Shown here piece after piece: positions 19,393 to 41,972 of a DNA stretch of 64,000 bases. The notes under the pieces were generated by a model that worked only from the letters and a program-made list of their open reading frames with translations, had not been told where the DNA came from and did no database searches. The translations under genes were made by a program, and so were the position numbers. The stretch lies in the NCBI GenBank assembly GCA_937900255.1, contig CALCDZ010000002.1:9655-73654 (forward strand). Reading direction: 5' to 3'. Within the stretch, counting starts at the first letter, position 1. Every line of letters begins with the position of its first letter. The DNA is from an uncultured bacterium (GTDB taxonomy: Bacteria > Patescibacteriota > Patescibacteriia > SG8-24 > DYFX01).

Positions 19393-20538
19393 ATGGCCAA
19401 CAGCGGAGACCGGGCGCGGTCTTGGAAAGCGACCTTCATCCTGTTCGGTACCATCGTGGGAGCCGGTATTTTCGGGTTGCCGGCGCTCATCCAGAAGTCC
19501 GGCTGGCTGATCGGCGTCTTTTGGATGCTCGCGCTCGCCGGAGTGGTGGCGCTTACGCATCTCTTGTATGCCGAGGTCGTGATGGTCACTCCGGGGAGGC
19601 ATCGCCTGGTCGGCTATGTACGGCTGTATCTCGGCAAGGGCCTTTCCGGGATCGAAGCCGTCAATTCGACCTTGAACCTTTACGGAGGCTCGCTCGCGTA
19701 CCTGATCCTGGGCGGCCTGTTCGCCGCCGCGATCCTGACGCCTGTCGCGGCCGTTTCGCCGTTGTACGGGTCGCTGGCGCTCTTCCTGTTCGGTCTCGCG
19801 GCGGCTTGGGGCGGCGCGGCGTTCCTCTCCAGGTTCGATTTCGCCATGACGATCGGGGAATTGACGTCTTTCCTGCTTCTGGCCGGCGTCGCGCTGACCG
19901 CGTTCGGTCCCGGCAACCTGGCGCATGCCGATTTTTCCCAGGCCTTCCTGCCGTATGGCGTGGTGCTCTTCGCTTACGGAGGCCTCACGGCCGTGCCGGA
20001 GGTCGCCGATATCATCGGCCTCGGCAAGCCGCGGCTGGTCCGGCGCAGCGTCATCATCGGGACGCTCATGGCCGCCGGACTGACGATCATTTTCGCGACA
20101 GCGGTCGTCGGGGCGCTCGGGCCGGACGTCACGCCCGAATCGGTCTCAGGCCTCGCCCGCAAGTTCGGCGGCGTCCTTCCGGTCCTCGGCGGAGTGACGG
20201 GGTTCCTTTCGATCCTGACGTCGTATGCGGTCTTCGGCGCCAACCTGAAATCGCAGTTCCAGTTCGATCTCAAACTGAAACCGCTTTCGGCGCTTTTCGC
20301 GGCCGTGGTCCTGCCGTTCCTGCTGTACCTCGCCGGCATCCGCAGCTTCGGGCGCATCCTGGAATTCGTCGGCGCGGTCTTGGTCGGCCTGGAAGGCATC
20401 TTCGTGGCGCTCGTCTATCTGAAGGCCAAAGCCAAGCATCCTGGCCGTATGCTGGACGTACCGAGACCGGTCGTCTATCTCCTCATCGCCGCGTATCTCG
20501 CCGGCATGCTGTACGAAATCTTCCGGCAAGGCGCTTGA
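19393..20538 (+). CDS. Amino-acid permease (HAAAP/aromatic amino acid transporter-like), 11-12 TM
   Basis: 381 aa and highly hydrophobic. TIVGAGIFGLP N-terminal motif is typical of Trp/Tyr/Ser permease families. The ORF 19302 alternate frame is rejected. Confidence 0.6.
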   Translation: MANSGDRARSWKATFILFGTIVGAGIFGLPALIQKSGWLIGVFWMLALAGVVALTHLLYAEVVMVTPGRHRLVGYVRLYLGKGLSGIEAVNSTLNLYGGSLAYLILGGLFAAAILTPVAAVSPLYGSLALFLFGLAAAWGGAAFLSRFDFAMTIGELTSFLLLAGVALTAFGPGNLAHADFSQAFLPYGVVLFAYGGLTAVPEVADIIGLGKPRLVRRSVIIGTLMAAGLTIIFATAVVGALGPDVTPESVSGLARKFGGVLPVLGGVTGFLSILTSYAVFGANLKSQFQFDLKLKPLSALFAAVVLPFLLYLAGIRSFGRILEFVGAVLVGLEGIFVALVYLKAKAKHPGRMLDVPRPVVYLLIAAYLAGMLYEIFRQGA

Positions 20539-20550
20539 GGGTGCCACGCC

Positions 20551-21357
20551 TCATCTTCCATGGCGCGTGCGTGCCAGTTCGAGCGTCTTCTTGATGAGCA
20601 GGGCGACCGTCATCGGGCCGACGCCGCCCGGGACGGGCGTCAGCGCTGCCGCCACGCCTTCCAAGGAGCTGGCGTCGGCGTCGCCGACGGTCATGCTTCC
20701 GATACGCGTCGTGCCGACGTCGATGACGATCGCGCCGGGCTTGATGTCTGCAGCCTTCAGCGACCTCGGCTGCCCGACGGCCGTCACGACCACGTCGGCG
20801 GAGCGCAGGTCCTCCGTCGGCGCCAGGCCGCGCTGTTCAAGCATCAGTTCGAGCGGGGTCGAAAAGACTGGGCTGTTGGCCCTGACCCCGGAAAGCCCTT
20901 CGTGAGGTGCGCCGGCTTCATCAAGCAATAACGAGACGGCTTCGATCAGGCCCGGCATCGCGCCGCGGCCTTGAAGATAGTTCCGGAGGTTCCAAGGGTG
21001 GAACCCGTCGACATCCTTGGCCGGGTCGATGAACGAGACGGTACCGTCCGTATCCAATTGCGGAGGGAGCGGCAGCTGGACCAGGATGGCATCGATGGCA
21101 TCGTCCTCGTTGAGTCCGCGTATCGCTTCCAAGACGGATTCCTGGCGCGCGTCCTCGGGAAAATCCTTCCGCACGAAGAGGATGCCCGCTTCGGCGCAGG
21201 CCTTCTCCTTGAGGGCGACATACAGGTGGGAGGCAGGGTCGTTTCCGACCAGCACGACACCCAGCCCAGGGCGGAAGCCCAGGCGCGAAATCTCTCCCGC
21301 GACATCTTCGCGGATGCGTTTCGCGAGGGACCGTCCGTCGATCAGGCGCGTCTTCAT
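20551..21357 (-). CDS. folD: Bifunctional methylene-THF dehydrogenase / methenyl-THF cyclohydrolase
   Basis: [15 protein letters not shown]...[14 protein letters not shown], a FolD signature. 268 aa. Confidence 0.9.
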
Positions 21358-22625
21358 GCCTTCCAGCCGGGATAAATAGGGTGCGCCGCGGCCAGTCCTC
21401 GCACGACGCGCAGGACATCCTCCCGTACGGACGCGTCTTCCGGCGCCTTGAGCGTCCTCGCGATGAGCGACCCGACGACCCGCATGTCCGCTTCCGCGAA
21501 ACCGCGCGTCGTGAGCGCCGGCGATCCGATGCGAAGGCCCGAAGGATCCATCGGCTTGCGGGTGTCGTAGGGGATCATGTTCATGTTCGTGTAGATGCCT
21601 GAAGCGTCGAGAGCGGCGACGGCGGGCTTCCCGGTGATGCCCAAACCGCTCAAATCGGCGATCAGCATGTGGTTGTCGGTGCCGCCGGTCACGAGGCGTA
21701 CGCCCTCCTCCTCAAGCGCGGCGGCCAGAGCGCGCGCGTTGCTGACGACCTGCGCCTGGTATGTCCGGAATTCCGGCTTGAGCGCTTCGCCGAAAGCGAC
21801 CGCCTTGGCGGCGATGACATGTTCGAGCGGGCCTCCTTGCATGCCTGGGAAGACCGCGGAGTCGATCTTCTTGGCGAGATCCTTCCGGCAGAGGATCATG
21901 GCACCGCGCGGGCCGCGCAGCGTCTTGTGCGTGGTGGTGGTGGCGATGTCGACGTAAGGGATCGGGTCCGGGAAGGCCTTGCCGGCCACGAGACCGGAGA
22001 AATGCGCCATGTCGACCATCAGGTACGCGCCGACCTCGTCGGCGATGGTGCGGAAGGCGGCGAAATCCAGCGTGCGTGGGTAGGCCGTGAAGCCTGCCAC
22101 GATGATCTTCGGCTTGGCCTCGCGCGCGATCTCGCGCACCTCGTCCAAGTCGATCAGGTGCGTGTCGCGCCGCACGCCGTAGTGGACGAACTTGAAAAGC
22201 TTGCCGGAAAAATTCACCGGCGATCCGTGCGTCAGATGCCCGCCCATGGCCAAGTCCATGGCCATGATGACGGCGCCGGGTTCCGCGAGCGCCAGGTACG
22301 CCGCCATGTTGGCCTGCGAACCGGCATGCGGCTGGACGTTGGCATGCTCCGCGCCGAACAGCGTCTTGGCCCGTTCGATGGCGAGCGATTCGATCTCGTC
22401 GATCTTCTCGTTGCCGCCGTAGTAGCGCTTGCCCGGGTAGCCTTCGGAATATTTGTTGGTGAGCGGCGTGCCGAGGGCCTCCAAGACGGCTTCCGAAACG
22501 ATGTTCTCGGAAGCGATCATCTCAAGGCCGTCCTGCTGGCGCAGGACTTCCTCGCCGATCATGCGCGCCAATTCCGGATCCTGGGCGGTGAGGTGGGGGA
22601 GAGTGTGCATGCGGGGAGTGTACAC
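21354..22625 (-). CDS. glyA: Serine hydroxymethyltransferase
   Basis: 423 aa. PLP site [13 protein letters not shown]. 4-nt ATGA overlap with folD. Confidence 0.95.
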
Positions 22626-22661
22626 CTGGCGGATGCCGGATGGAAAGGCGGGCGGATAGGA

Positions 22662-23777
22662 TCAACGCGCAGCGGCGGCGACCGATTCGAGATAGCTCTC
22701 GGCGTACTGCTCCGCGATCTTGTCCCAATCGAACCGTGCGAGCCGTGAGGTCGCTTGGAGCGCGCAGGCTTCGGAAAGCGCATGGTCGGAGAGGAGACGC
22801 GTGATGGCCGATGCCAGCGCTTTCGGGTCGGAGGGCGGAACGAGCAAGCCCGTCTTTTCATGTTCGATGACGTCCGGGATGCCGCCGACGTCCGTGCCGA
22901 TGACCGGGACGCCGAGCGCTTGCGCTTCCAGGAGGACGATGCCGAGCCCTTCGCCCAACGACGGCAGGGCGAAGACGGCGGAGGCGGCCACTTCGGCCAT
23001 CGCTTCGACGTTCGGCTTCGCGCCCACGAAATGGACGGCGTCCTGGAGCGACCGTTCCGCCGTGAATGCCTTGAGTTCCGCTTCCAGCGCGCCGCCGCCG
23101 ACGATCGTCAGTTCGGCGTCGTGGATCGTGCGGCGCACCTCCTTCATGGCTTCGATCAGGAACGGCAAGCCTTTCTCCGGAGAGAGCCGCGCGACCGTCA
23201 CGACGCGGTGCGGCCGCTTTTCGCGCCGCGGCACCTTTGCCAGATGCCCGAAATCGACGCCGTTGGGGATCGTCATGGTGCGCGCGGCGCCCAGCCGCTC
23301 GGCGCGGGCCGTGAGCGCCCTCGAGATGCCGACGACCAAGGTCGGGGAGACATGGATGTTCCGCCAGACGAAACGGGGGATCTTCCGGTTCTTTTCCGGC
23401 ATGTCGAGGTCGCCGCTCTGCAGTGTCAGGAGGGTCGGCTTCTTCCCGCCGAAGGCGCGGTACCACCAGAGGGCGATGCCGGCATAGGATTCCATGACGG
23501 CATGGACCAGGTCGTGCGGTTCCCCGAGCGTCCAGAGTGGAGCGAGCAGGGGGAACAGGAACTTGTCCCGCTTCGTGCCGAAACCGAGCCGGACGATCTC
23601 ATGGGATGTGCCGTCGGGCAGTTCGCGGATTTCGTGGCGGGGAAGCGCGGCATCAAGCCGGGCCGTCACCACCACGATCGAAAAACGCCCGGCCAGGCGC
23701 CGGACGGTCTCGACGACCATCCGCTCCGCGCCGGAAACGAAAGGCTCGTAGAAGGCGGAGTAGATTACGATGCGCAT
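22662..23777 (-). CDS. Glycosyltransferase family 4 (GT-B)
   Basis: 371 aa. N-terminal MRIVIYSAFYEPFVSGAERMV and C-terminal E-x7-E-like region (GEGLGIVLLEAQALGVPVI). Confidence 0.8.
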   Translation of the reverse strand: MRIVIYSAFYEPFVSGAERMVVETVRRLAGRFSIVVVTARLDAALPRHEIRELPDGTSHEIVRLGFGTKRDKFLFPLLAPLWTLGEPHDLVHAVMESYAGIALWWYRAFGGKKPTLLTLQSGDLDMPEKNRKIPRFVWRNIHVSPTLVVGISRALTARAERLGAARTMTIPNGVDFGHLAKVPRREKRPHRVVTVARLSPEKGLPFLIEAMKEVRRTIHDAELTIVGGGALEAELKAFTAERSLQDAVHFVGAKPNVEAMAEVAASAVFALPSLGEGLGIVLLEAQALGVPVIGTDVGGIPDVIEHEKTGLLVPPSDPKALASAITRLLSDHALSEACALQATSRLARFDWDKIAEQYAESYLESVAAAAR

Positions 23778-23781
23778 GCGC

Positions 23782-24750
23782 TCAAGATGCTTGTCTTTCG
23801 AGATATTCGTAGGTCTCGCGCAGTCCGGCCTCGAGAGGCGTGGTAGCGCGCCAACCGATCAGCTGTTCCATCTTGGTCACGTCCGGCGTCCGGTACTTGA
23901 TCTCCATCTTGCGCACCGGCAGGTATTCGATCTTCAGGTTCTTGCCCGAGAGGGCGATGACTTGTTCCGCCAGCTCCTGAATGGTGGTCGGGACGCCCTT
24001 GCCGACGTTGATGGTCTCGCCGTCGGTCTCCTTCTTGAGCATGGCCGTCAGGATGCAATCGATGTTGTCCTTATAGAAGACGAAGTCACGGGTGGCGGAA
24101 CCGTCGCCGAAGATGTGGAGCGGCTCGCCTTTGCGGGCGCGGTCGAGGAAGATGCCGACGACGAAGCCGTACGGCGAACTTTCCTGCCTCGGTCCGTAGA
24201 CGTTGAAGAAACGCAAAGCCACGGTCGGCAGGCCGTACTGATGATAGTAATGGTAGGTCAAGTTCTCTCCGAGCATCTTGACCAAGCTGTACGGGTCGCG
24301 TGGGCTGGGGTTGACCGCGCCGTGCTCATGAGACGGCAGCTGGATGGGCTCCCCGTAGACCTCCGACGAGGATGAGTAGAGGATCTTCTTCACCTTGCGG
24401 TCCTTGCAGAATTCGAAGATGGCCCGGATGCCGTCGATGTCCCTCAGTACGTCAAGCGGGCGCTCCTCGACCCGTTTCACGCCGCAAAAAGCGCCGAGAT
24501 GGAAGACATAGTCGGGCGTGGAGGCATCGAAGGCGCGATCGAGCGTCGCCCAGTCGTTGGCGTTTCCTTGGATGAAGGTGAAATCCGGGTTGCCGTCGTG
24601 TTGGGCGAGGTTGTCGCGCTTTCCGGTGGAGAGGTCATCGAGAACGATGACTTTGGCCCCCAGCCCGAGCAGGCGATCGGTCAGATGAGATCCGATGAAT
24701 CCGGCGCCACCGGTCACGAGGACGTTCGCTCCTTTATAAGCTTCGAACAT
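23782..24750 (-). CDS. NAD-dependent epimerase/dehydratase (UDP-glucuronate decarboxylase / UDP-sugar 4-epimerase-like SDR)
   Basis: VLVTGGAGFIGSHL Rossmann motif and YxxxK. Start placed at M37 (24750) because a terminator hairpin for the upstream gene occupies 24818-24850. Confidence 0.8.
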   Translation of the reverse strand: MFEAYKGANVLVTGGAGFIGSHLTDRLLGLGAKVIVLDDLSTGKRDNLAQHDGNPDFTFIQGNANDWATLDRAFDASTPDYVFHLGAFCGVKRVEERPLDVLRDIDGIRAIFEFCKDRKVKKILYSSSSEVYGEPIQLPSHEHGAVNPSPRDPYSLVKMLGENLTYHYYHQYGLPTVALRFFNVYGPRQESSPYGFVVGIFLDRARKGEPLHIFGDGSATRDFVFYKDNIDCILTAMLKKETDGETINVGKGVPTTIQELAEQVIALSGKNLKIEYLPVRKMEIKYRTPDVTKMEQLIGWRATTPLEAGLRETYEYLERQAS

Positions 24751-24817
24751 AATAGGAGATAGTGTGACGAATCGTCCTGATTGTGCCAGGGAAGCCAGCA
24801 AAGCACAATGGCGGGAC

Positions 24818-24850
24818 GTATTAAAAGACCCCGCATCAGAGGAGGCGGGG
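24818..24850 (-). terminator. Rho-independent terminator (minus strand) after the hypothetical gene 24855..25250
   Basis: On the minus strand: CCCCGCCTCCTCTGATGCGGGG followed by TCTTTTAAT. Confidence 0.65.
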
Positions 24851-24854
24851 GACA

Positions 24855-25250
24855 TCACTTCTTGTCGGGCTTCGGAGGTGCGTCTTCCGTGGCGGGCACG
24901 ACGATGGGGTCGACTCCAGGGATATCGACCTGGATTTCCTTGATCTTGTTGGGAGGCAGCTTGCCCCCGACCTGTTGCGCGGCTTTCTTTGCTGCGTCGG
25001 CCTGAGCCGACCGGCCGCCTGGCGCGGCTTTGCGGACGGCTTCGCGTACTTCTTCCGTCGCTGGTCTCCCGACCTTGTCGGCCAGTTCCTTGGCCGCTTG
25101 GTTGTCTCTCTCGACCCTGTCTCGACTGGGGTCCCTTTTGGAAGGAACGTTTTCTACTCGGGGCTTGACCTTCACCCCGACATCGCCCGGGTCGACAGGC
25201 GCGTTCCGTTCATCTGCGGGCGTACCTGCATTCGGCTTCTTTTCGGACAT
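24855..25250 (-). CDS. Hypothetical low-complexity (K/P/A/E-rich) protein
   Basis: 131 aa. Likely disordered. Good GC3. Terminator downstream. Confidence 0.45.
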   Translation of the reverse strand: MSEKKPNAGTPADERNAPVDPGDVGVKVKPRVENVPSKRDPSRDRVERDNQAAKELADKVGRPATEEVREAVRKAAPGGRSAQADAAKKAAQQVGGKLPPNKIKEIQVDIPGVDPIVVPATEDAPPKPDKK

Positions 25251-25461
25251 GACGGCTCTCCTGAATGAACGTGTGGTGACATCTTGACATCGGGATAATT
25301 GTCTGTAAAGCGTCCGGGATGACTTTTGAGAATAGGTAGCACTTCTTGTTGTATTGATGCCAAGTCACGCAGATTGCTACCCGCAGCGTTGAGTTTTTGA
25401 CAGAATGGGGGGGTTCCATGTAAGTTGAAACAAGTTCATTTTGAACGGAAAGAGGATCGAA

Positions 25462-26190
25462 ATGGGAAATTCTTGGATGCTGCTGGCGGCAATCTCTTGT
25501 GTCATTGCTTGCGCTCACGAGCAGGACAACGGTTGGGATACCGGACTCGATGGCAACGTCAAAGAGACGGTTGCTCAAATCCAGTCGGTACAATGCCGAA
25601 AAACGGATGCTGTCTTGCGTTCGGAGGGTCTGCACGAAGATCAGCTAGGGCTTGTGCGTGACTTCTGCCGCCAGACCTTGCGACAGATGGCCATAGCCCT
25701 AACCGATCGTTTCGAGGAATCAAGACGGCGGGCCGAACTTGCGAAGACCTCCGAATCCTTCTACGCGTGCACGTACGAGGGGTACAATACCGGCATACCG
25801 AGCTATTCGGACCTTGGCCTTTCCTCTGGAACATGCTCTTGGCATGATCCGAATCCGGAATGCCAAGTATTCTACGCTTGCTTGTGGGGGTGCAATAATG
25901 TCGACCCTTCGCTTGGTTGGCACATCAAGTGGTATACCAGCAGGAGTGCACTGGAGGCGGATATTTTCCCCAAAGGGTATTCTTACGTGTCCGGCACGGG
26001 CGAAGGTGGCGGTTACCGTCGTACGTTACCCAATGGATACAGCTACCAAGTCCATTCCCTGACCATCGATGCGAATGGCATGGGGAACTGGCACAATGAA
26101 GGACCCGAGCCCGACCCGAGGTTTAACTGGAGCGGTTATCTCGGAGGTTGGTGGCCTTACGAAGTGAAGGCCTGGCACGACCACTGCTAG
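25462..26190 (+). CDS. Cys/Trp/Tyr/Gly-rich secreted lipoprotein (low-GC islet)
   Basis: AAAGAGGA RBS lies 7 nt before ATG 25462. Signal peptide with lipobox VIAC. 10+ Cys. Local GC is about 52%, against roughly 65% for the genome. Confidence 0.55.
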   Translation: MGNSWMLLAAISCVIACAHEQDNGWDTGLDGNVKETVAQIQSVQCRKTDAVLRSEGLHEDQLGLVRDFCRQTLRQMAIALTDRFEESRRRAELAKTSESFYACTYEGYNTGIPSYSDLGLSSGTCSWHDPNPECQVFYACLWGCNNVDPSLGWHIKWYTSRSALEADIFPKGYSYVSGTGEGGGYRRTLPNGYSYQVHSLTIDANGMGNWHNEGPEPDPRFNWSGYLGGWWPYEVKAWHDHC

Positions 26191-26197
26191 AATCCCT

Positions 26198-26554
26198 ATG
26201 CTTGAAGCGATAAAAAAAAACTTGACCCCAAACGCGACCAAGGTCGGTTTGTTCTTTGTCCTGATGACGACCATCGCACTAGGCATGCTGGACGGTTACT
26301 ACGCGTTCAGCGGTGAGCGACGCGCGCCGGAGGTGCTGGCCAGCATACTGCATGCCGCTCCGTGGTGGGTCATGTCGCTGCCCATCAACTTTCCCGGCCA
26401 GATGCTCCTCCTTCTTCTTCGAGAGTTGGGTTTTAGACCGAGCTTACTTGTGCAGCTATTGCTTGAAATGCCATTCACATACGTGCTGTCGTGCATCGTG
26501 ATCGCCCTCGTGGATAAAACGAGAGAATTCGGCAGCGACGCGGGTGCGAACTAA
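26198..26554 (+). CDS. Small 3-4 TM membrane protein (candidate partner/immunity protein)
   Basis: Starts 8 nt after the lipoprotein stop. Hydrophobic. A9 tract at 26212-26220 within codons 5-8. Confidence 0.5.
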   Translation: MLEAIKKNLTPNATKVGLFFVLMTTIALGMLDGYYAFSGERRAPEVLASILHAAPWWVMSLPINFPGQMLLLLLRELGFRPSLLVQLLLEMPFTYVLSCIVIALVDKTREFGSDAGAN

Positions 26555-26562
26555 CAGATCGC

Positions 26563-26592
26563 CAGAGGCCTCAAGGCCTCTTTTTATCCTCG
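26563..26592 (+). terminator. Rho-independent terminator
   Basis: AGAGGCC-tcaa-GGCCTCT followed by TTTTTAT. Confidence 0.7.
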
Positions 26593-26640
26593 GCTCGAAG
26601 CTTGAAGGGTGTCGTCGTACCAGGTAAGCTTTGCTGGTCT

Positions 26641-28035
26641 ATGCCTCTCGACCTCGATCACCTTCACCGGATCCACTGCGTCGGCATCGGCGGCATCGGC
26701 GTTTCGGCCGTCGCCAAGTTCTTGCGGCTGCAAGGCAAGGAAGTGAGCGGTTCCGACGGGGCGCGCAGCGTGGTCACGGCCGATGCCGAACGCGTCGGCG
26801 TCTCCGTCTTCGATCCGTCGCCGGAAAACATCGCGCCGGACCTCGATCTGCTCATCTACACGTCGGCGGCGCCGGAGACGCATCCGGAACGCGAGGCGGC
26901 GGCCAGGTTCGGCATCCCGCAGCTCAGCTACTTCGAGTTCCTCGGATTGCTTTCGTCACGTCATCGGACGGTCGCGGTCTGCGGCACGAACGGGAAGTCG
27001 ACCACGACCGCGATGCTCGGCCTGATCCTGGAGCGCGCAGGACTCGACCCGCTCGTCATCGTGGGCAGTCGCGTGCCGACCTTTGAATACGGCAATCTTC
27101 GTCCCGGAGAAGGCGGGCTTCTCGTGGTCGAAGCCTGCGAATACCGCGAGCAGTTCATGAGCCTGTCGCCATCGGTGGTCGTGACGACCAAGATCGCGGA
27201 AGACCATCTCGACTACTACCGTGACTTGGCGCATATCCAGGCGACGTTCCGTGCCTTCGCTTCGAAACGGCCTGCGGACGGCCCGCTCATCTGGAACGCC
27301 GATGACGCGGGGAGTCGCGAAGCGTATGCGGGCATCGACGGTCCGAACGGCACCTTCGGGTTCTCGTCCGGCGCCGACCTGCGCGCGGAACGCCACGAGG
27401 TCTCCGCCGGTCTTCAGCGCTTCGACGCCGTCTGGAATGACGGTGTCGCCTGGCGGGGATTGGAGCTCGCAGTGCCGGGCGCCTTCAACGTGTCCAACGC
27501 GCTGGCCGCTCTCGGGGCCGCCCGTGCGCTCGGCGCGGACGAGGCATCCGCCCGTTTCGCGCTCGCGGGGTTCACGGGCATCTGGCGTAGGTTCGAGAAA
27601 GTGGGGGAACGCGATGGGGCTCCGATCATCTCCGATTACGGCCATACGCCGGACGCCATCGCGGCCACGCTCCAGGCCGCGCGCGATTTCTACCCTGGCC
27701 GCAAGATCGTCCTGGCTTTCCAGCCGCATCATCACGACCGCACGCGCAAGCTCTTCGACGCTTTCGTTCCCGCCTTCGACGGAGCCGATACGCTCGTCCT
27801 CTCCGAAATCTATGACGTGGCCGGACGCGAGGAAGGCGCGGGCACGATCTCGTCGCGAGCGCTGGTCGAGGCGATCGAGGCGCGCGGAGCCGTTCCGAGC
27901 GTCCGGTACGCGCCGGATCCGGCCGATGCGCTCCGGCAGCTCGAAGCGCTTGACGCTGAAAATGCCATCATGCTGGTCATGGGCGCAGGGGACATTTATT
28001 CCATTGCCTATCCGCTATGCCGACCGTCGAAATGA
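26641..28035 (+). CDS. murC: UDP-N-acetylmuramate--L-alanine ligase
   Basis: N-terminal HCVGIGGIGVSAVAKFL Rossmann, GTNGKSTT P-loop, and Mur ligase middle and C domains. Start at MPLDLD. Confidence 0.85.
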   Translation: MPLDLDHLHRIHCVGIGGIGVSAVAKFLRLQGKEVSGSDGARSVVTADAERVGVSVFDPSPENIAPDLDLLIYTSAAPETHPEREAAARFGIPQLSYFEFLGLLSSRHRTVAVCGTNGKSTTTAMLGLILERAGLDPLVIVGSRVPTFEYGNLRPGEGGLLVVEACEYREQFMSLSPSVVVTTKIAEDHLDYYRDLAHIQATFRAFASKRPADGPLIWNADDAGSREAYAGIDGPNGTFGFSSGADLRAERHEVSAGLQRFDAVWNDGVAWRGLELAVPGAFNVSNALAALGAARALGADEASARFALAGFTGIWRRFEKVGERDGAPIISDYGHTPDAIAATLQAARDFYPGRKIVLAFQPHHHDRTRKLFDAFVPAFDGADTLVLSEIYDVAGREEGAGTISSRALVEAIEARGAVPSVRYAPDPADALRQLEALDAENAIMLVMGAGDIYSIAYPLCRPSK

Positions 28036-30242
28036 AGCCGTTGGACAAGTTCCTGCTCTACGTCGTCCGCTACGGCCTATTCGCGGTCTTCGCGCTGCCT
28101 TTCGTGGTCTGGTTGAGTCACCTGTACCCATGGGTGACCGGTAAGGTCTTCAGTTTCGTGATCCTCGTCGAAGTCCTGTTTCCTGCCTACGTCTTGCTGG
28201 CACTGCGCCGCCGGGAGTTCCGCCCTTCCAGGAATCCGCTTCTTTACGCGCTTCTTGCCTACTTCGCGGTAGAGACGCTTTCGATGCTCCTGGGCGATAA
28301 TGCGCATCGCAGTCTCTGGTCGAAACCGGATCGGCTGACGGGCCTGTTCTTCCAGTATCACCTCCTCGCGTTCTTCCTCATGGCCGGAGCCGTCTGGCGG
28401 AAGGTGATGGTCCAGCCGATCGTCGCGTCGATCGTCACCGCCGTCCTCCTTTCGCTCCAGGCGCTCCACCAGGTCTTCTCGCCTGCGCCCGGGTCCGACG
28501 GTCGTGGCTCGGCGACGCTCGGTAATCCGGATTATCTCGGACAATATCTCGTGCCGCACCTGTTCCTGTGCGGCTGGTTGATCCGGCGGCACTGGAAGAC
28601 GTCGCTGCGATGGCTGTGGACGGGCGCCGGCGCGCTTATCCTGGCAGGCATCGTCTCCGCCCAATCGAAAGGTGCGCTTGTCGGCGTCGCGATCGGCATC
28701 CTGGTCGGAGCGCTTGTCCTGATTTTCCGATCGACCGGCATGGTCCGGAAGGCAGGACTCGCCGGCATGGGGGTGCTGGCGCTTGCCGTCGCGGGCTTCT
28801 TCATCGGCCAGAAGATCCGGCCGGTCAACGTCTGGTTGTATGATCATCGTTTCTCCATCCAGTATCTCCAGGAAACGACGGGGTCCCGGCGGCTGCTCCT
28901 GCAGAACGCCTTGAAAGGCATCGGCCAGCGCCCGATCCTGGGCTGGGGTCCGGAGAATTTCGAGGACGGTTTCTATTTCAACTACGACCCGCACACCCTG
29001 AAGTTCTCGGATTACGAGACCCGTCAGGATCGGCCGCATAACCTGGTGCTGGAACTCCTGCACAACCTTGGCGCGATCGGTTTCCTCGCGTATGCGCTCG
29101 TCCTCGTCTCCGCCGCGCGCCTGGCCCTGAAGAAAGGACGTCCGGAAATGGCGGCAGGCGTCATCCTGATCGTGGCTGCCGTCTCGCAGGTCGCCACCGA
29201 TCTCTTCATCTTCGAGACGCCGATGTCGTATATGGCGCTCTTCCTCATGTTCTCGCTGATCGCGGCCGATGCGGGAGAACGGGAGGCGTGGGAAGAAGGC
29301 GGCGATGAGACTTCCGCCGCATCCGTACCGCTCTTCGTCCTGGCCGCGGCGCTTTCGGGCTGGTGCCTGATCGGCATCGTGTCCGGCACGATCGCTTCCA
29401 CGCGCCTGACGGCTTCGATGATCGTCGGCCTGCAGGCGCAGGGGGCCTCCGACCAGGACAAGGCCGATCAGCTGAAGGCGGAACTGTCCGGCCTCCGCAA
29501 GCTGAAGACGCCTTACTATGAACGCGACATCCGCGCGCTCAGTTCGCATCTCAGCCGCGCTCGCGGCGAATATCTGGAAGGTCCCCTCAAGCCGATCCTG
29601 ATCGAGACGGCGGAGGAGGAATACGGGCTGCTTCAGCGCAACCGCACGGATTACGTGCACGCGCTCGTCACGGCCGTGGCCTACCTGAGCTTCCATCCGC
29701 GCACGGACGCGCAGCAGGCCGCGCTTGAGGATTCCGCGTCGCTTGCATCCAAGCTTTCCCCGAACCGCCAGGAGGTCGAGGAGATCCTGGCCCAGATCGC
29801 TTGGGAAAAAGGCGACCTTCCCGCATCCGAGGCGCATATCCGCCGGATCAAGGATCTCGACCCCGAACTGCCGATCGGCGACGCCTGGCGGATCAGGTGG
29901 CAACTGGAGTTCGGCGATCCCAAAGAGGCCGTCAAGGCGCTTTCGGGGCGACCAGAAATCGCGCAGGATACGACGGCATGGAATCAGGTCGAATACGGCA
30001 CGCTTCATCTGCTCACGCAGAAGCGTTGGCAAAGCCTTGCGGCATTGCAAGAGGCGTCCGCAGCCGCCGGGGTGCGCAACGTCCAGTGGGACCTGACCGG
30101 TGCGATCGCCTATTGGGCGGAAGGCCAGAAGACCAAGAGCGATGCGCTCATCGCCGAGTGCCGGAAGCGCTATCCGGACAAGCTTGACCTGATCACTTCG
30201 ATCGAGACGAATCGAGCCCAAATCGTCGCGACCGGCGCATGA
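28032..30242 (+). CDS. O-antigen ligase/polymerase-like (Wzy_C) membrane protein with C-terminal TPR-like domain
   Basis: About 12 TM N-terminal half, then a large TM-flanked loop, and a soluble alpha-helical repeat C-terminus. ATGA overlap with murC. Confidence 0.75.
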   Translation: MKPLDKFLLYVVRYGLFAVFALPFVVWLSHLYPWVTGKVFSFVILVEVLFPAYVLLALRRREFRPSRNPLLYALLAYFAVETLSMLLGDNAHRSLWSKPDRLTGLFFQYHLLAFFLMAGAVWRKVMVQPIVASIVTAVLLSLQALHQVFSPAPGSDGRGSATLGNPDYLGQYLVPHLFLCGWLIRRHWKTSLRWLWTGAGALILAGIVSAQSKGALVGVAIGILVGALVLIFRSTGMVRKAGLAGMGVLALAVAGFFIGQKIRPVNVWLYDHRFSIQYLQETTGSRRLLLQNALKGIGQRPILGWGPENFEDGFYFNYDPHTLKFSDYETRQDRPHNLVLELLHNLGAIGFLAYALVLVSAARLALKKGRPEMAAGVILIVAAVSQVATDLFIFETPMSYMALFLMFSLIAADAGEREAWEEGGDETSAASVPLFVLAAALSGWCLIGIVSGTIASTRLTASMIVGLQAQGASDQDKADQLKAELSGLRKLKTPYYERDIRALSSHLSRARGEYLEGPLKPILIETAEEEYGLLQRNRTDYVHALVTAVAYLSFHPRTDAQQAALEDSASLASKLSPNRQEVEEILAQIAWEKGDLPASEAHIRRIKDLDPELPIGDAWRIRWQLEFGDPKEAVKALSGRPEIAQDTTAWNQVEYGTLHLLTQKRWQSLAALQEASAAAGVRNVQWDLTGAIAYWAEGQKTKSDALIAECRKRYPDKLDLITSIETNRAQIVATGA

Positions 30243-31383
30243 GGTCCTGGTAGAGCTCCAGGGTGCTCGCGACCATGGATGAACCGGAGCGGCGTTCCGC
30301 GATGCGCGGGGCGCCGCTTTTCAGTTTTTGGGACAGGTCCTGACCGGCCAGGACGGAACGGATGGCGGAGACGAGCCTTTCGCGGTCGGCGGGCGGTATG
30401 AGAAGCCCCGTTTCCCCGTCCTCGATCAGTTCCGGCAGCGCGCCGACGCGGGTGGCGATGATCGGCACGCCGGCGAGCGAGGCTTCCAGGATCGCCCATG
30501 GCAAGCCTTCTTTCGTGGAGGGGAGGATGAAGAGGTCGAACGCCTTGAGTAGCCGGGCGGCGTCGGGCAGGGCGCCAGGCAGGCAGATGCGCGCGCGGTG
30601 GGCGAGGCCGGAACGGCGCGCCAGGAGTTCCGGCATCTTCGGGCCGTCTCCGATGACGACGAGATCGACATCAGGAAATTCTCCGGCGACCGCGTCGAAC
30701 GCTTCGAGCAGCATCGGAAGATTCTTTGCGGGATAGCTGTTGGCGATCGTGCCGATGATCCGTTCGAAGGCCGGCACCCCGCAAGCCTTGGAAAGTTCCG
30801 TAAGCGCGGCATCCCGTCCAAGGAAGGCGATCTCGTCCGGATCGATGCCGAGCGGAATGAGGTGCAGTCGAGCCGGAACGGAAAGATCCTTGTCCAGCGC
30901 GACGGCGCGTTCGGTCTCGGTCAATACGATGGTAGCGGAGCGCCAGAGCGACGCCAGCTTTTCGCTCGCGAGCATGAGCAGTCGGAACGGGAAAGGTCTC
31001 CGCTCCAAGAAACCCCAGCCATGGGCGGTGAAGATCAGGGCGGGACGTCGCTTCGAGAGCCGGACGGCCAAGGCTGCGATCAGGCCGGCCTTGCTGCTGT
31101 TGGAGTGAATCAGGGCGTACCCCTCCCGATCGATCATCTTTCGGACGGCGTTGACCGCTTTCAGGTCGTTCCATGGCGAGATCGGGCGGCGCAACGCCGG
31201 AATCTCGAAGGTCCGGATGCCGTTCGGAAGCGCCTTGAAAAGCTCGGATCGCGCAGAGGATCCGGCTGCGACCGTCACGTCGAATCCGGAACGCGCGGCG
31301 GCGGCCAGGCGCGCGACATAGCGCTCGGCGCCTCCCCAGGCCGAGGAGGTGATGAGATACAGGAGTTTCGGCTTGGCATCCAT
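30193..31383 (-). CDS. Glycosyltransferase family 4
   Basis: 396 aa GT-B. KLLYLITSSAWGGAERYV N-terminus and EGLPWAILEASLAGVPIIAT C-domain. Confidence 0.8.
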   Translation of the reverse strand: MDAKPKLLYLITSSAWGGAERYVARLAAAARSGFDVTVAAGSSARSELFKALPNGIRTFEIPALRRPISPWNDLKAVNAVRKMIDREGYALIHSNSSKAGLIAALAVRLSKRRPALIFTAHGWGFLERRPFPFRLLMLASEKLASLWRSATIVLTETERAVALDKDLSVPARLHLIPLGIDPDEIAFLGRDAALTELSKACGVPAFERIIGTIANSYPAKNLPMLLEAFDAVAGEFPDVDLVVIGDGPKMPELLARRSGLAHRARICLPGALPDAARLLKAFDLFILPSTKEGLPWAILEASLAGVPIIATRVGALPELIEDGETGLLIPPADRERLVSAIRSVLAGQDLSQKLKSGAPRIAERRSGSSMVASTLELYQDLMRRSRRFGLDSSRSK

Positions 31384-31424
31384 ATTTGCCGCAGGAAAGC
31401 GCAGCAGCTACACTATAGCATGAC

Positions 31425-33650
31425 ATGAAAGTCGTCTTCGCCACCGGAATCTTCCCGCCCGACATCGGCGGACCGGCCGCCTCGGTCCCGTTGTTGGCGG
31501 AAGCTTGGAGCGCTCGCGGGCATGAAGTGACGGTCGTGACGTATGCGGACGCGCCGTCGGTCGCCGGAAACGATCCCGCTTATCGCGTCGTCAGGATTTC
31601 CCGCACGCTTCCGGTTTGGAGGCGGTACCCCGCGTTTTTCATGGCGTTGTGGCGCGCCTCGGCAGGGCCTGGCTCGATCTTCGCCCAGGACGGCGTCGCT
31701 TCCGGGGTGCCGGCGTTGATCGTCTCCCGTCTGCGCCGTCGGCGCCTGATCGTCAGGATCGCCGGAGATTTCGCGTGGGAGCGCGCGCAGGTGGCGCATG
31801 GGTACCGGGAATCGCTTGAGACGTTCCAGCGGGACCGGCGGCTCCCGCTCGGTCTCAGGGTCATCCGAGCGCTACAGCGTTCCGTCTTCCGGCACGCTCA
31901 CCTCGCGGTCGCGCCGAGCCGCTATCTTGCGGATGTGCTGCGCGGTTGGGGGGTGGGCGAGAACCGGATCCGCGTCATCCACAACGGGGTCGTCCTGCCG
32001 GACGTCATCCCTGCACACGGCACTCATCCTCGACGCATCGTCGCGTCCGCCCGGCTCGTGCCATGGAAGAACATCGACGTGCTCATCAAGGCGATGCCGG
32101 GCGTCCTGGCACGCGTGCCGGACGCGACCCTGCTGATCGTCGGAGACGGACCGGAACGGGAACGCCTCGAGGCACTCTCCGCGGCGCCGATGCTGAAAGG
32201 GAAGGTTTCCTTCGCCGGACGGATGGAGCGGAAGGATCTTCTTACGATCATCGCCGAAAGCGCGGTCTTCGCTTTGCCGAGTTCCTACGAGGGCTTTTCT
32301 CACCAGTTGGTGGAGGCGTTCGCCTGCGGAGCCGCCGTCGTCGCCAGCCGCGCCGGCGGCAATACGGAACTGGTCGCGGATGGCAAGAACGGTCTTTTGG
32401 TCGAACCTGGCGACGTCGTCGGGCTCTCGAAGGCCCTCATCCGCTTCCTTGAGGAGCCGGCTTTCGCTGAAGCCTGCGGACGGGAAGCGGCGAAGGGGCT
32501 TGCCGGTTTTACGGTCGATACGCAAATCGCCCGGACGACCGAGGCGGTCTTGGGCCGGCCCGGATTGCGCGTGGTGCTCGTGAGCCGCGACGGCACGGCG
32601 GCGGATCCTTCTTCGCGGACGGCGGCGCGCATGCGCGCCTATGGGGAGCGGGTCGACTTCCTGCATGTGGTCTGTCTCGCGAGACAGGAGCCGTCCTCCA
32701 TGCGGCTTTCGCCGCGCGTGCAGGTGGATGTCGTGGATGCGCGCACGGCGCTCCGTCATCCTTTGGCGCTGACCGGCGCCGTGAAAGATGCCGCCATTGC
32801 CTCGCAAGCGTCGCTCGTCGTCGCGCAGGACCCGTTCGAGGCCGGCGTATCCGCAGCTGCGGCCGCTTGGTCCGTCGGCGTGCCGCTCCTCGTCGAGGAG
32901 CATGGCGGCGTCTACCTTTCCCCGCATTGGAGACGGGAAAAGATCAAACATCGTCTGCTGCATCCGCTGGGACTCCTGGTCATGGGCCGCGCGGCCGGCC
33001 TGCGCGCCGTGAGCGCCAAGATCGAGGCCGACCTGCGCCGTCGCTGGCCGAAGATGCCGATCGCGCGCATCCCCGTCTATACCGAGCCGATCGCGTGCTA
33101 TCGCGAAGGCGCGCCGTACGTCTTCGGATACGTCGGGCGCTTCGTGCCGCAGAAAAAACTTGAGATGCTCCTTTCGGCTTTCGCTTCCGTCGTCCGTACC
33201 CGTCCAGAAGCGCGCCTTCTCATGGTCGGCGCCGGTCCTTCGGAAGCGGCATTGCGCGCCGAAGCGGAAGCGCTCGGTATCGGCGATCATGTGACGTGGC
33301 GGCCGTACAGCGAGCGCATCGTCGACGTCTTCAAGGAAATCGGCACCTTGGTCCTCTCGTCCCGGTACGAGGGCTGGGCGCGCGTCGTGCCTGAGGCGAT
33401 GTCCTGCGGCATTCCCGTGGTGATGACGGACGTCGGCTGCGCCGGCGAACTCCTGCGTAACGGCGTCGAAGGCTACGTGACCCCGATCGACGACGCGGGC
33501 ATCTTGGCTCAAGCCATGCTCAAGATCTCCGATCCGCACCAGCATGCGCTCATGAGCGCGGCCGCCAGGCGCCGCTCGGAAACTTCCGCGACGCCCGAAG
33601 ACCTGGCCGGGCGCCTCATCGGTTTCTGGAAGGAGGTGGCTGGCCTATGA
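31425..33650 (+). CDS. Tandem double GT4 glycosyltransferase (two GT-B modules fused)
   Basis: 741 aa. Two E-x7-E-type C-domains (EGFSHQLVEAFACGAAVV and EGWARVVPEAMSCGIPVV). Confidence 0.75.
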   Translation: MKVVFATGIFPPDIGGPAASVPLLAEAWSARGHEVTVVTYADAPSVAGNDPAYRVVRISRTLPVWRRYPAFFMALWRASAGPGSIFAQDGVASGVPALIVSRLRRRRLIVRIAGDFAWERAQVAHGYRESLETFQRDRRLPLGLRVIRALQRSVFRHAHLAVAPSRYLADVLRGWGVGENRIRVIHNGVVLPDVIPAHGTHPRRIVASARLVPWKNIDVLIKAMPGVLARVPDATLLIVGDGPERERLEALSAAPMLKGKVSFAGRMERKDLLTIIAESAVFALPSSYEGFSHQLVEAFACGAAVVASRAGGNTELVADGKNGLLVEPGDVVGLSKALIRFLEEPAFAEACGREAAKGLAGFTVDTQIARTTEAVLGRPGLRVVLVSRDGTAADPSSRTAARMRAYGERVDFLHVVCLARQEPSSMRLSPRVQVDVVDARTALRHPLALTGAVKDAAIASQASLVVAQDPFEAGVSAAAAAWSVGVPLLVEEHGGVYLSPHWRREKIKHRLLHPLGLLVMGRAAGLRAVSAKIEADLRRRWPKMPIARIPVYTEPIACYREGAPYVFGYVGRFVPQKKLEMLLSAFASVVRTRPEARLLMVGAGPSEAALRAEAEALGIGDHVTWRPYSERIVDVFKEIGTLVLSSRYEGWARVVPEAMSCGIPVVMTDVGCAGELLRNGVEGYVTPIDDAGILAQAMLKISDPHQHALMSAAARRRSETSATPEDLAGRLIGFWKEVAGL

Positions 33651-34693
33651 GGATACTCGTCGTCACGCAGGCCGTCGACGCGGATTCCTCCACGCTCGGC
33701 TTTTTCGTGGAATGGCTCCGCGAGTTTTCGGGGCGCTGCGAGCGCGTGGACGTCATCGCGCTTTCGGTCGGACGGCATGACTTGCCCGCGAACGTCCGCG
33801 TCGTCTCGATGGGTAAGGAACGTGGCATCGGCAGGCTGGGACGCCTGCTGGCATATTGGAGGCATCTTCTGAAGCTCTTGCCGGAAACGGACGGTGTCTT
33901 CATCCATATGTGCCCGGAGTACCTGCTCGCAGGATGGCCGCTTCTCGTTTTCAGGCGCTTGCCGACCGTATTTTGGTACGCGCATCGTTCCAGGAACCTT
34001 CTCGCACGCGCGGCGATGCCGCTCGCCACCCATCTGGCGACGAGCGTTCCCGGAGCCGTCACGCTTGCTGCGGCCAACATCCGGTTCCTTGGGCAGGGGA
34101 TACCGACGGAGCTGTTCCGTCCGCTCCCGCTCCTCGTCGGGTCTCCGTTCAGGCTCGTGGTCGTGGGCCGCATCACGCCTATCAAGCGGCTCGATCTGCT
34201 GATCGACGCCCTGGCCCTTTTGCGGGGGCGCGGCATCGACGCTGCGCTCGAGTTCTGGGGAGAGCCGGCCGCGGCAGGCGACGCGGCCTATGCCGTTTCG
34301 TTGCGGGAAAGGGCCGTAGCCGCGTCGGTTTCTGGAAGAGTGCGCTTCCTCGGGAGAGTGCCGTTCGCGCGTATGCCGGAAAAATACGGCGGGGTTTCCG
34401 TCGCCTGGAACGCCTGCGCGGATGGTGCCGTCGACAAGGCCGTGCTTGAAGCCATGGCTTGCGCCAGGCCGGTCGTGGTGACGAATCACGTCTTTTCCGG
34501 CACGTTCGGACCGGATGCGGATGCATGTCTGGCCGACGGGACGGCGGAGTCCATCGCGGAAAAAACGGCGAAGATCCTGTCGGGCCCCGGCGGGCTGGCG
34601 CTTGGACTTCGCCTGCGCGAGACGGTCGTGGCCCATCATGGCCTTCCTGGCCTCGTGAACGGCATCATCGATCTGATGGACTCCAAGCGTTAA
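33647..34693 (+). CDS. Glycosyltransferase family 4
   Basis: 348 aa. MRILVVTQAVD N-terminus. 4-nt overlap with the upstream gene. Confidence 0.75.
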   Translation: MRILVVTQAVDADSSTLGFFVEWLREFSGRCERVDVIALSVGRHDLPANVRVVSMGKERGIGRLGRLLAYWRHLLKLLPETDGVFIHMCPEYLLAGWPLLVFRRLPTVFWYAHRSRNLLARAAMPLATHLATSVPGAVTLAAANIRFLGQGIPTELFRPLPLLVGSPFRLVVVGRITPIKRLDLLIDALALLRGRGIDAALEFWGEPAAAGDAAYAVSLRERAVAASVSGRVRFLGRVPFARMPEKYGGVSVAWNACADGAVDKAVLEAMACARPVVVTNHVFSGTFGPDADACLADGTAESIAEKTAKILSGPGGLALGLRLRETVVAHHGLPGLVNGIIDLMDSKR

Positions 34694-41196: not shown

Positions 41197-41228
41197 ACGC
41201 GGCTGCGTCGATAACCTATGGCATTCGT

Positions 41229-41972
41229 ATGAAAGAGGCGATATTTTACGACGATTCGTACTTCCAGGCATTGGAGAATCGTTACTTCTTAGGGGCGCAT
41301 GGTGAACGCGTCAGGGATATCGTGTCTTTCCTCCCATCCAGGAAACACGTCCTTGATTATGGTGCCGGCAGCGGTTACTTCGCATTCCGCGCTCTACAGC
41401 TTGAAAATACCGTCGTTGCGTTCGATTTTGCGCCGGCGGCAGTGCAATACATGCGGTCGCACTATCCGACGCTTGAAATCGTCGAACGGAAGGATGCCTT
41501 GAAGGGGGTGTATGACACGATTCTTCTGAACGACGTGATCGAGCACGTCGACTACTCTGAGCAGGCTTCTTTCATCTCCAATCTCCGGGAGCACTTGAAA
41601 GCAGGCGGTCGATTGATTGTCGCGACCGATAATTTTGACTCGTTCTTCTTCAGGGGCCGTCTCGGTAAAAAATGTCTAGCGATCGATCAGCGCATTTCTC
41701 CAGAAGGCATCATTTATAGGGCCATTAAAAAGGGTGAGACGGAACGTCCTTATTACCACAATGCCTATAATGATTCCCATGTCGGATTACTTGGGCGCGA
41801 CAAATTGGTTCGACTTTTCAAGAGCCAAGGCTTTGAGCTCGTTCGCGAAAAGCACGGTTTTCTCTTTCGTACTTACGTTTCCCGCCTTATCAGCGCATGT
41901 TTTGGGCTCAGGCCACTGCATTCCGTCTATGAGTTCACTTTGATGGCAGAGACCCTCCCGCGTTCAAGGTAG
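41229..41972 (+). CDS. Class I SAM-dependent methyltransferase
   Basis: VLDYGAGSGYFA motif I, and LLNDVIEHV. Local GC is about 50%, lower than the neighbours. Confidence 0.65.
   Translation: MKEAIFYDDSYFQALENRYFLGAHGERVRDIVSFLPSRKHVLDYGAGSGYFAFRALQLENTVVAFDFAPAAVQYMRSHYPTLEIVERKDALKGVYDTILLNDVIEHVDYSEQASFISNLREHLKAGGRLIVATDNFDSFFFRGRLGKKCLAIDQRISPEGIIYRAIKKGETERPYYHNAYNDSHVGLLGRDKLVRLFKSQGFELVREKHGFLFRTYVSRLISACFGLRPLHSVYEFTLMAETLPRSR

Follow-up and report, generated by a model that had tools for sequence, protein, structure and literature searches.

Among described systems, the ColM family offers one of the closest parallels to the gene pair considered here: a single effector family is paired, by lineage, with either a membrane-anchored extracytoplasmic or an integral membrane immunity protein (PMC5277000). 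Our subject is a low-GC (guanine plus cytosine) islet holding two genes, A and B, in a 64,000-nucleotide stretch of DNA (the window) from an uncultured member of the Patescibacteriota (GenBank assembly GCA_937900255.1, contig CALCDZ010000002.1, positions 9,655–73,654). We show that this islet is a horizontally acquired two-gene operon of 1.3 kb, standing in place of a native gene for a 150–165-amino-acid (aa) protein. On the evidence of sequence comparison, A and its partner are inherited together in bacteria of the candidate phyla radiation (CPR), archaea of the Diapherotrites, Parvarchaeota, Aenigmarchaeota, Nanoarchaeota and Nanohaloarchaeota (DPANN) grouping, Altiarchaeum and Thermococcus. 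As a small surface-protein cassette gained by horizontal transfer, the islet is of an ordinary kind. It holds two very rare protein families that carry no annotation; the fold is not a recognised one, and the spread over CPR, DPANN and Thermococcales is unusual.

In ColM-like pairs, the gene for an exported effector adjoins a small gene whose product protects the cell from the outer side of the cytoplasmic membrane, and the same would hold for A and B in the role we propose for them. The ColM partner dichotomy is mirrored by the C-class and B-class partners of A (below), and both sets of pairs are horizontally mobile and patchy. Unlike ColM, A is lipid- or transmembrane (TM)-anchored and is carried by CPR bacteria and archaea; it has no sequence or fold similarity to ColM and no receptor-binding or translocation domains, and its toxicity is putative. 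Polymorphic toxin systems share with A a domain at the extreme C terminus and a partner encoded directly downstream; in one case the domain is fused to a PKD-domain protein, again with the partner gene directly after it (P0030, below). They differ in that the A family has no Rhs, filamentous-haemagglutinin, LXG or similar delivery domains and no toxin/immunity arrays, is conserved rather than hypervariable and shows one fusion architecture.

In its signal peptide and lipobox (V-I-A-C), both predicted, the A protein resembles bacterial lipoproteins, the substrates of Lgt and LspA. It departs from typical members in that its n-region, read from the ATG start, has no Lys or Arg, and in that low-GC homologues use a TM anchor or a signal peptide. 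The islet also recalls the contingency loci of Neisseria, Haemophilus and Campylobacter, in that one homopolymer sits within the spacer of a promoter-like sequence and a second close to the start of an envelope-protein reading frame. Unlike those of contingency loci, the islet tracts are short, occur at chance level, are invariant in the available assemblies and are missing at the same positions in homologues.

The islet is a horizontally acquired operon

Positions 25260–26592 have a GC content of 0.532, whereas the mean for the whole window is 0.630 (sd 0.025, 1,333-nt windows). Windows this poor in GC make up 0.7% of the total, and each of them falls either in the islet or in a second patch, near 41 kb. 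The tetranucleotide distance of segment 25294–26612 from the rest is the largest in the window (z = 5.4). These computations bear out a preliminary description of the locus, made from the letters alone, which had reported lower GC than the surroundings; its figure of roughly 65% for the genome is right as to high GC and inexact as to value, the window standing at 63%. At third codon positions, GC (GC3) is 0.617 in gene A and 0.689 in gene B, compared with 0.78–0.85 in eight of nine flanking native-GC genes checked (both genes of the patch near 41 kb being left out); the ninth, a 131-aa open reading frame (ORF), has 0.682. The intergenic DNA upstream of gene A (25251–25461) is 45% GC.

Relatives without the islet delimit the insertion. 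The closest named relatives of the window's MurC are 75–78% identical and come from metagenome-assembled genomes (MAGs) labelled ‘Patescibacteria group bacterium’. The window thus belongs to a GC-rich CPR bacterium. We compared three related loci (L043, L044 and L045), whose MurC proteins are 83%, 78% and 79% identical to that of the window, respectively. All three keep the order GT4 glycosyltransferase, epimerase, charged ORF (129–145 aa, minus strand), murC and Wzy_C; the charged ORF is homologous to the 131-aa ORF to the left of the islet, and adjoins the epimerase gene in each case. Between it and murC, where the window has A and B, the relatives have a 150–165-aa ORF of native GC (0.65–0.67), of which we find no remnant anywhere in the window. 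This slot ORF, so far as the compared sequences indicate, has been lost from the window genome or replaced by the islet. By blastn, DNA similarity to the three loci stops at ~25293 and picks up again at 26613–26641, which delimits an inserted segment of ~25294–26612 that contains genes A and B only, with their own upstream region and terminator (Table 1). Because the relatives share the flanks and hold a different, native-GC gene in the slot, we conclude that the islet was horizontally acquired. Presence or absence in related genomes, which the preliminary description had named as a check, thus comes out in favour of an islet: the pair is missing from all three, with the flanks kept.

The islet bears no flanking direct or inverted repeats and no mobility gene, and the window as a whole has no transfer RNA or Rfam element. 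We rejected a transposon-type insertion, given the lack of flanking repeats, and a viral origin, as there are no relatives in IMG/VR viral contigs.

Conservation and distribution of the pair

Homologues of A are few. A word-indexed search of 5.8 billion proteins returned four (42–56% identity), and an exhaustive profile search of 1.84 billion cluster representatives returned 34 at E ≤ 1e-3, 18 of which reach E ≤ 1e-10. Named carriers are Ca. Magasanikbacteria (CPR), Ca. Iainarchaeum (DPANN), Ca. Altarchaeum, an unclassified archaeon and four Thermococcus MAGs; we retrieved a further 26 A loci from metagenomes. Weaker profile matches in huge repeat proteins (P0026, P0028, P0032 and others) were rejected as unrelated: these proteins are dominated by fn3 and DUF285 domains, and the matches rest on a stretch of 25–35 residues around GYSYQV...NG.G, which we attribute to chance.

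A homologue of B lies directly downstream of A in all four of the first-found homologues (BLASTP E of 7e-16, 3e-18 and 0.002 for three of the pairs). Across 38 loci, nearly every one with a long enough contig has a same-strand ORF at −47 to +81 nt from the end of A; counted otherwise, 37 of the 38 have a same-strand ORF within ~80 nt or too little contig to tell. Most partners belong to four classes (B, C1, C2 and C3), those outside them being an unclassified four-helix protein (L008) and, at one locus, only a short non-membrane ORF (L019). Partner class tracks the A tree, with all B-partnered A proteins in one clade and C2 and C3 each monophyletic. The genes around the pair differ in every locus, and so the functional unit appears to be A plus its partner, self-contained.

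P0030, the PKD-domain protein mentioned above, is a 1,014-aa protein with a borderline PKD match whose own C terminus corresponds to the last ~110 residues of A. Its gene is followed directly by a C1 partner (Table 1). Since P0030 keeps both the C-terminal domain of A and the C1 partner, the partner seems to be tied specifically to that domain. This is the one fusion architecture of the domain that we found.

These observations agree with the preliminary description of a secreted Cys-rich protein and an adjacent small membrane protein on a compositional island, and extend it in that the pair is also conserved elsewhere.

Gene A encodes an exported Cys-rich protein

The A precursor contains 10 Cys, 11 Trp, 13 Tyr, 25 Gly and 12 Asn residues. 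Its N terminus, MGNSWMLLAAISCVIAC, ends in a V-I-A-C lipobox at Cys17 (...LLAAISCVIAC17), judged by eye against the pattern [LVI][ASTVI][GAS]C, in agreement with the VIAC lipoprotein of 242 residues with at least 10 Cys proposed earlier. An upstream TTG start would add a Lys and an Arg to the n-region. Bacterial-looking homologues have lipobox-like motifs of their own (ISAC, IAAC, LVSC, AAAC, STGC and GAGC), and in the low-GC homologues, which presumably come from archaea, a plain TM helix or signal peptide at the N terminus takes the place of the lipobox.

An alignment of 20 members identifies eight conserved cysteines (C45, C69, C103, C125, C134, C140, C144 and C242, the last being the final residue), together with the motifs CLWGCxNxD, KGY, R187, G192–Y193, EGPEP (213–217) and a C-terminal WHxxC. 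We predict that A is rich in disulfides, leaves the cytoplasm through the Sec/lipoprotein pathway and remains anchored on the outside of the cell membrane. The AlphaFold model (predicted local distance difference test (pLDDT) 79.7; predicted template modelling score (pTM) 0.77) is differentiated into a disordered linker (18–30), a four-helix domain (31–96), Cys-rich loops (97–150) and a C-terminal α/β domain (151–242).

There is no match to A in Pfam, NCBIfam, PADLOC or PHROGs, and nothing significant among PDB sequences with the A profile. Foldseek found no neighbour of the model in the PDB or BFVD. Its top hits, all non-significant (E > 0.2, TM-score < 0.2), are an IclR ligand domain, LOV/PAS, PYL10/Bet v 1 and lipocalin. 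As modelled, A therefore appears to carry an unrecognised fold. Two checks had been suggested for this protein. The one, for a housekeeping family, gave no such match and so does not count against the original observation; the other, for a disulfide-rich lectin or toxin fold, yielded neither a family nor a fold match. A Pfam scan of the 20 members at E values up to 5 gave scattered sub-threshold matches only. Among these was GH24 phage-type lysozyme (PF00959), below cut-off in two of the 20 members (17.8 and 12.8 bits against 22.3), which we rejected: the match covers profile positions 27–84, a charged helix with no catalytic region, and the A protein of the window is unmatched. Our literature searches, directed at toxins of archaea and bacteria, turned up no account of the A family.

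Partners of A are of unrelated architectures

Gene B starts 7 nt after the TAG stop of gene A, in keeping with the small polytopic membrane protein reported earlier just downstream of the lipoprotein. Hydrophobicity peaks at residues ~13–33, ~45–73 (weaker) and ~85–105. The gene has no Shine–Dalgarno sequence of its own; given this and the 7-nt spacing, translational coupling of A and B is likely. The B family is as rare as that of A, with eight proteins in the profile search, and B has no family match in Pfam, NCBIfam, PADLOC or PHROGs and no match among PDB sequences. A DsbB-like redox partnership was considered and rejected: a CxxC motif (CKEC) is present in three B homologues only (L001, L011 and a Diapherotrites sequence, L046), and not in the B protein of the window.

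BLASTP clustering assigns the partners at 35 loci to the four classes. Class B comprises small polytopic proteins of 108–193 aa (eight loci, including the window). Class C1 proteins (12 loci) have 228–267 aa and a single N-terminal anchor; C2 proteins, from Thermococcus, have ~225–239 aa (10 loci); and C3 proteins have ~300 aa (five loci). C1 and C2 are homologous (hhalign 94.5%, E = 8e-8), and C3 has a weak local resemblance to them in profile–profile comparison. C1 and C2 profiles matched nothing significant among PDB sequences. LolA-like or DUF2092 matches of the C-class partners fall below the Pfam cut-off, the best being one member with DUF2092 (E = 0.007, 16.2 bits against 21.2).

One B homologue has no A beside it. 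It occurs in Ca. Diapherotrites archaeon CG08 (L046, PEXL01000043.1, 4001–5522), where the adjacent gene encodes a different lipobox protein, of 387 aa, which contains a HEMAH (HExxH) motif and, like A, terminates in Cys. The exported partners of B-type membrane proteins may thus come from more than one family.

Homopolymer tracts in the islet

The preliminary description placed a G7 run in the spacer of a TTGACA-containing promoter-like sequence and an A9 tract in codons 5–8 of gene B, called the latter extraordinary, and took both for slipped-strand on/off switches. The positions are as described (Table 1). The promoter is doubtful: a consensus scan calls no σ70-type promoter upstream of gene A, and the −10 element matches at three of six positions. 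Nor are the tracts exceptional. G7/C7 runs are fewer in the window than expected by chance (4 observed against 13.5 ± 4.8 in dinucleotide-preserving shuffles). No homopolymer in the window is longer than the A9 run, which occurs once (0.13 expected); such a run appears one or more times in 9 of 100 shuffles.

Loss of one A from the A9 tract would bring an immediate TGA stop in gene B, and gain of one a stop after ~43 codons. The lengths of both tracts are the same in an ENA assembly (ERZ650241, L006), whose contig matches the window at 100% identity along 14 kb. The A9 length is also the same in a Logan contig (SRR6231188, L007), which starts just downstream of the G7 run and is 100% identical over 4 kb. 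These are assembly consensus sequences, possibly all from one sample, and count as weak evidence. At positions corresponding to G7 and A9, the other B-partner loci have no A/T run of at least 8 or G/C run of at least 7, and the two closest loci (L002 and L003) have none anywhere in the cassette. With chance-level statistics and no such runs in homologous loci, nothing supports slipped-strand switching; we infer that both tracts are incidental features of AT-richer foreign DNA. For annotation, the lesson is that, in a GC-rich genome, short homopolymers within a foreign islet richer in AT call for read-level evidence before they are interpreted as phase-variation switches.

Three Thermococcus loci contain an A9 run of their own, in a conserved non-coding block ~45 nt upstream of the TATA-like box of the gene-A homologue. 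It is the sole A/T run of at least 8 (or G/C run of at least 7) in each locus (20.7, 5.3 and 2.0 kb). In the window, the complement of the A9 tract forms the T9 tail of a terminator-like hairpin on the minus strand (26221–26245); no minus-strand gene ends there, and the hairpin is probably fortuitous.

Possible functions of the pair

The most likely mechanism, to which we assign a probability of roughly 0.35, is that A is an extracytoplasmic effector or toxin and its partner a membrane immunity protein. The C-terminal domain of ~110 residues would be the active part of A, with neighbouring or host cells as its targets, at their membrane or outside it. The partner, which is B here and in other clades an unrelated membrane-anchored protein of ~230 aa, would sit in the membrane of the producer and neutralize A at the cell surface, the two working like a bacteriocin/immunity or polymorphic-toxin/immunity pair. 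We favour this mechanism because the partner gene lies directly downstream of A; because the domain invariably forms the C terminus, and in the one case of its recombination onto a large surface protein the partner has been kept; because two unrelated partner architectures are both exposed at the outer membrane face, as in the colicin-M family; and because a rare, self-contained pair is distributed sporadically across domains of life.

Several points weigh against an effector and its immunity protein. Searches of Pfam, NCBIfam, PADLOC, PHROGs, the PDB and BFVD reveal no toxin fold, catalytic motif or known toxin/immunity family, so that of the likeness to toxin/bacteriocin–immunity cassettes seen earlier, the architecture fits and the recognisable toxin is missing; the idea is plausible and unproven. 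His154 and His211, invariant in the first five A sequences, are not conserved across 20. Most A proteins keep an N-terminal lipid or TM anchor and are not obviously released. Classical toxin/immunity loci are hypervariable, often with orphan immunity genes or arrays. A is well conserved (30–55% identity between domains of life) and has diversified in step with its partner, with few exchanges; we saw neither orphan nor arrayed genes, and the window has a single copy of the pair. The domain fusion was found only once. The A9 run near the start of B would also be hazardous, since a frameshift-prone tract in an immunity gene conflicts with a toxin/immunity function.

Nearly as likely is a cell-surface complex, in which A is a displayed binding or structural protein whose C-terminal domain docks on the partner as anchor, receptor or assembly factor, the module serving adhesion or cell–cell interaction (for example, between epibiont and host) and not killing. 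Membrane tethering of A in most members, by a bacterial lipobox or an N-terminal TM helix, suits such a role, as does the co-diversification of A and partner in the manner of subunits of one complex; a docking module accounts for the retention of domain and partner in the PKD fusion as well as a toxin does. Many carriers are CPR or DPANN organisms, which live attached to hosts, although the Thermococcus and Altiarchaeum carriers are free-living. Two unrelated partner architectures (polytopic, 110–130 aa, and single-anchor, ~230 aa) are harder to reconcile with one docking interface, the gene is patchy and can be dispensed with even in close relatives, and A itself has no adhesin-type repeats. 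We consider it improbable that the pair is a ligand-binding or scavenging module, with the α/β C-terminal domain of A binding a small hydrophobic or other ligand and passing it to the partner. The top Foldseek neighbours of A are all small-molecule-binding α+β folds, yet none is significant. One C1 partner has sub-threshold DUF2092 and LolA_like (E = 0.31) matches, and C1–C3 have in common a C-terminal pattern, ‘...G..C/..v.v......w.D..t....’, which we take to be typical of LolA-like proteins, but the LolA-like signal lies under every cut-off. CPR and DPANN organisms depend on scavenging; Thermococcus, by contrast, has no need of lipid scavenging, and B is too small for a transporter and belongs to no recognisable family.

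A phase-variable surface antigen or contingency locus, with G7 slippage tuning the spacer and A9 slippage switching gene B, is very unlikely. Loss of one G would bring the 18-nt spacer to 17 nt, A9, the longest homopolymer of the window, lies early in gene B, where either slip truncates the product, and the locus encodes a surface protein. Set against this are the under-representation of G7 runs, the recurrence of A9 in 9% of shuffles, the identical lengths in the assembly records covering each tract, the lack of comparable runs in other B-partner loci and the poor −10 element. Moreover, neither tract exceeds the length from which slippage usually becomes appreciable. Most remote of all is a native gene pair whose low GC stems from amino-acid composition or weak codon-usage selection. 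A is indeed rich in Asn, Tyr, Trp and Gly, and its gene is 39–50% GC in other hosts whatever the host GC. The deficit nevertheless reaches third codon positions and the intergenic DNA, and three relatives have another gene in the slot and no pair, by which this reading is largely refuted.

To return to the effector and its immunity protein, a wider proposal that we advance tentatively, and think rather doubtful, is that gene A is the founding member of a new fold family, whose proteins would be extracellular effectors locked by disulfides, each with a dedicated membrane immunity protein, and exchanged among CPR, DPANN/Altiarchaeota and Thermococcales. If true, ultra-small episymbionts and their neighbours would possess a weapon or host-interaction module that crosses domains and has so far gone unrecognised. 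To our knowledge, little is known of the cell-surface biology of CPR and DPANN organisms and of their interactions with other cells, and we know of very few protein families shared specifically between the two lineages. The A–partner pair is compact, self-contained and horizontally moving. Its two small genes are a concrete and cheap target, and could reveal a new antimicrobial or adhesion mechanism working across the bacterial/archaeal divide.

Table 1. Features of the islet, its flanks and related loci (window positions unless a locus is named).
Feature	Location	Strand	Details	Basis
Acquired low-GC segment (islet)	25294–26612	.		Ends of DNA similarity to relatives, GC, tetranucleotides
AT-rich region upstream of gene A	25294–25461	+	Promoter-like pair TTGACA (25397–25402) and TAAGTT (25421–25426), 18-nt spacer
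G7 run	25407–25413	+	Within promoter-like spacer	Read from sequence
Shine–Dalgarno-like AAGAGGA	25450–25456	+	5 nt before gene A ATG
Gene A	25462–26190	+	Lipoprotein precursor, 242 aa	ORF list, alignments, AlphaFold model
Gene B	26198–26554	+	Small membrane protein, 118 aa, ~3 hydrophobic helices	ORF list, hydrophobicity, BLASTP
A9 run	26212–26220	+	Gene B codons 5–8, ATA AAA AAA AAC (I-K-K-N)
Intrinsic terminator	26564–26588 (stem 26564–26581)	+	Stem AGAGGCC/GGCCTCT, then TTTTTAT; closes A–B operon, within acquired segment
Native left flank, outside islet	24855–25250	−	Conserved, highly charged ORF, 131 aa	ORF list, presence in relatives
Native right flank, outside islet	26641–28035	+	murC	Family match, MurC relatives
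Slot ORF of relatives	L043 3428–3925; L044 5447–5899; L045 5441–5926		Conserved, 150–165 aa, no Pfam match
P0030 locus	L042 2345–6175 (GCA_043808785.1, JAZDEL010000003.1)		C1 partner directly after (E = 6e-22); neighbours RtcB, Archease
Thermococcus A9 runs	L012 9791–9799; L014 2703–2711; L031 46–54

Genomic surroundings of the islet

The 131-aa charged ORF on the left flank has no match in family scans (Pfam, NCBIfam, PADLOC and PHROGs) and is probably disordered. Window positions 20500–33700, in which the islet lies, encode FolD, SHMT, a GT4 glycosyltransferase, an NAD-dependent epimerase, MurC and a 741-aa Wzy_C/O-antigen-ligase-like protein; further downstream in this interval are more long ORFs, which match glycosyltransferases in relatives. 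A cell-envelope cluster of this kind is a typical site for variable surface genes.

The second low-GC patch spans positions 40953–43257, inside a glycosyltransferase cluster, with a minimum of 51.5% GC per 1.3-kb window. It comprises genes for an S-adenosylmethionine-dependent methyltransferase (40953–41972, GC3 0.55) and a Wzx-type polysaccharide flippase (41935–43257, minus strand), and is probably another variable or acquired surface-polysaccharide segment.

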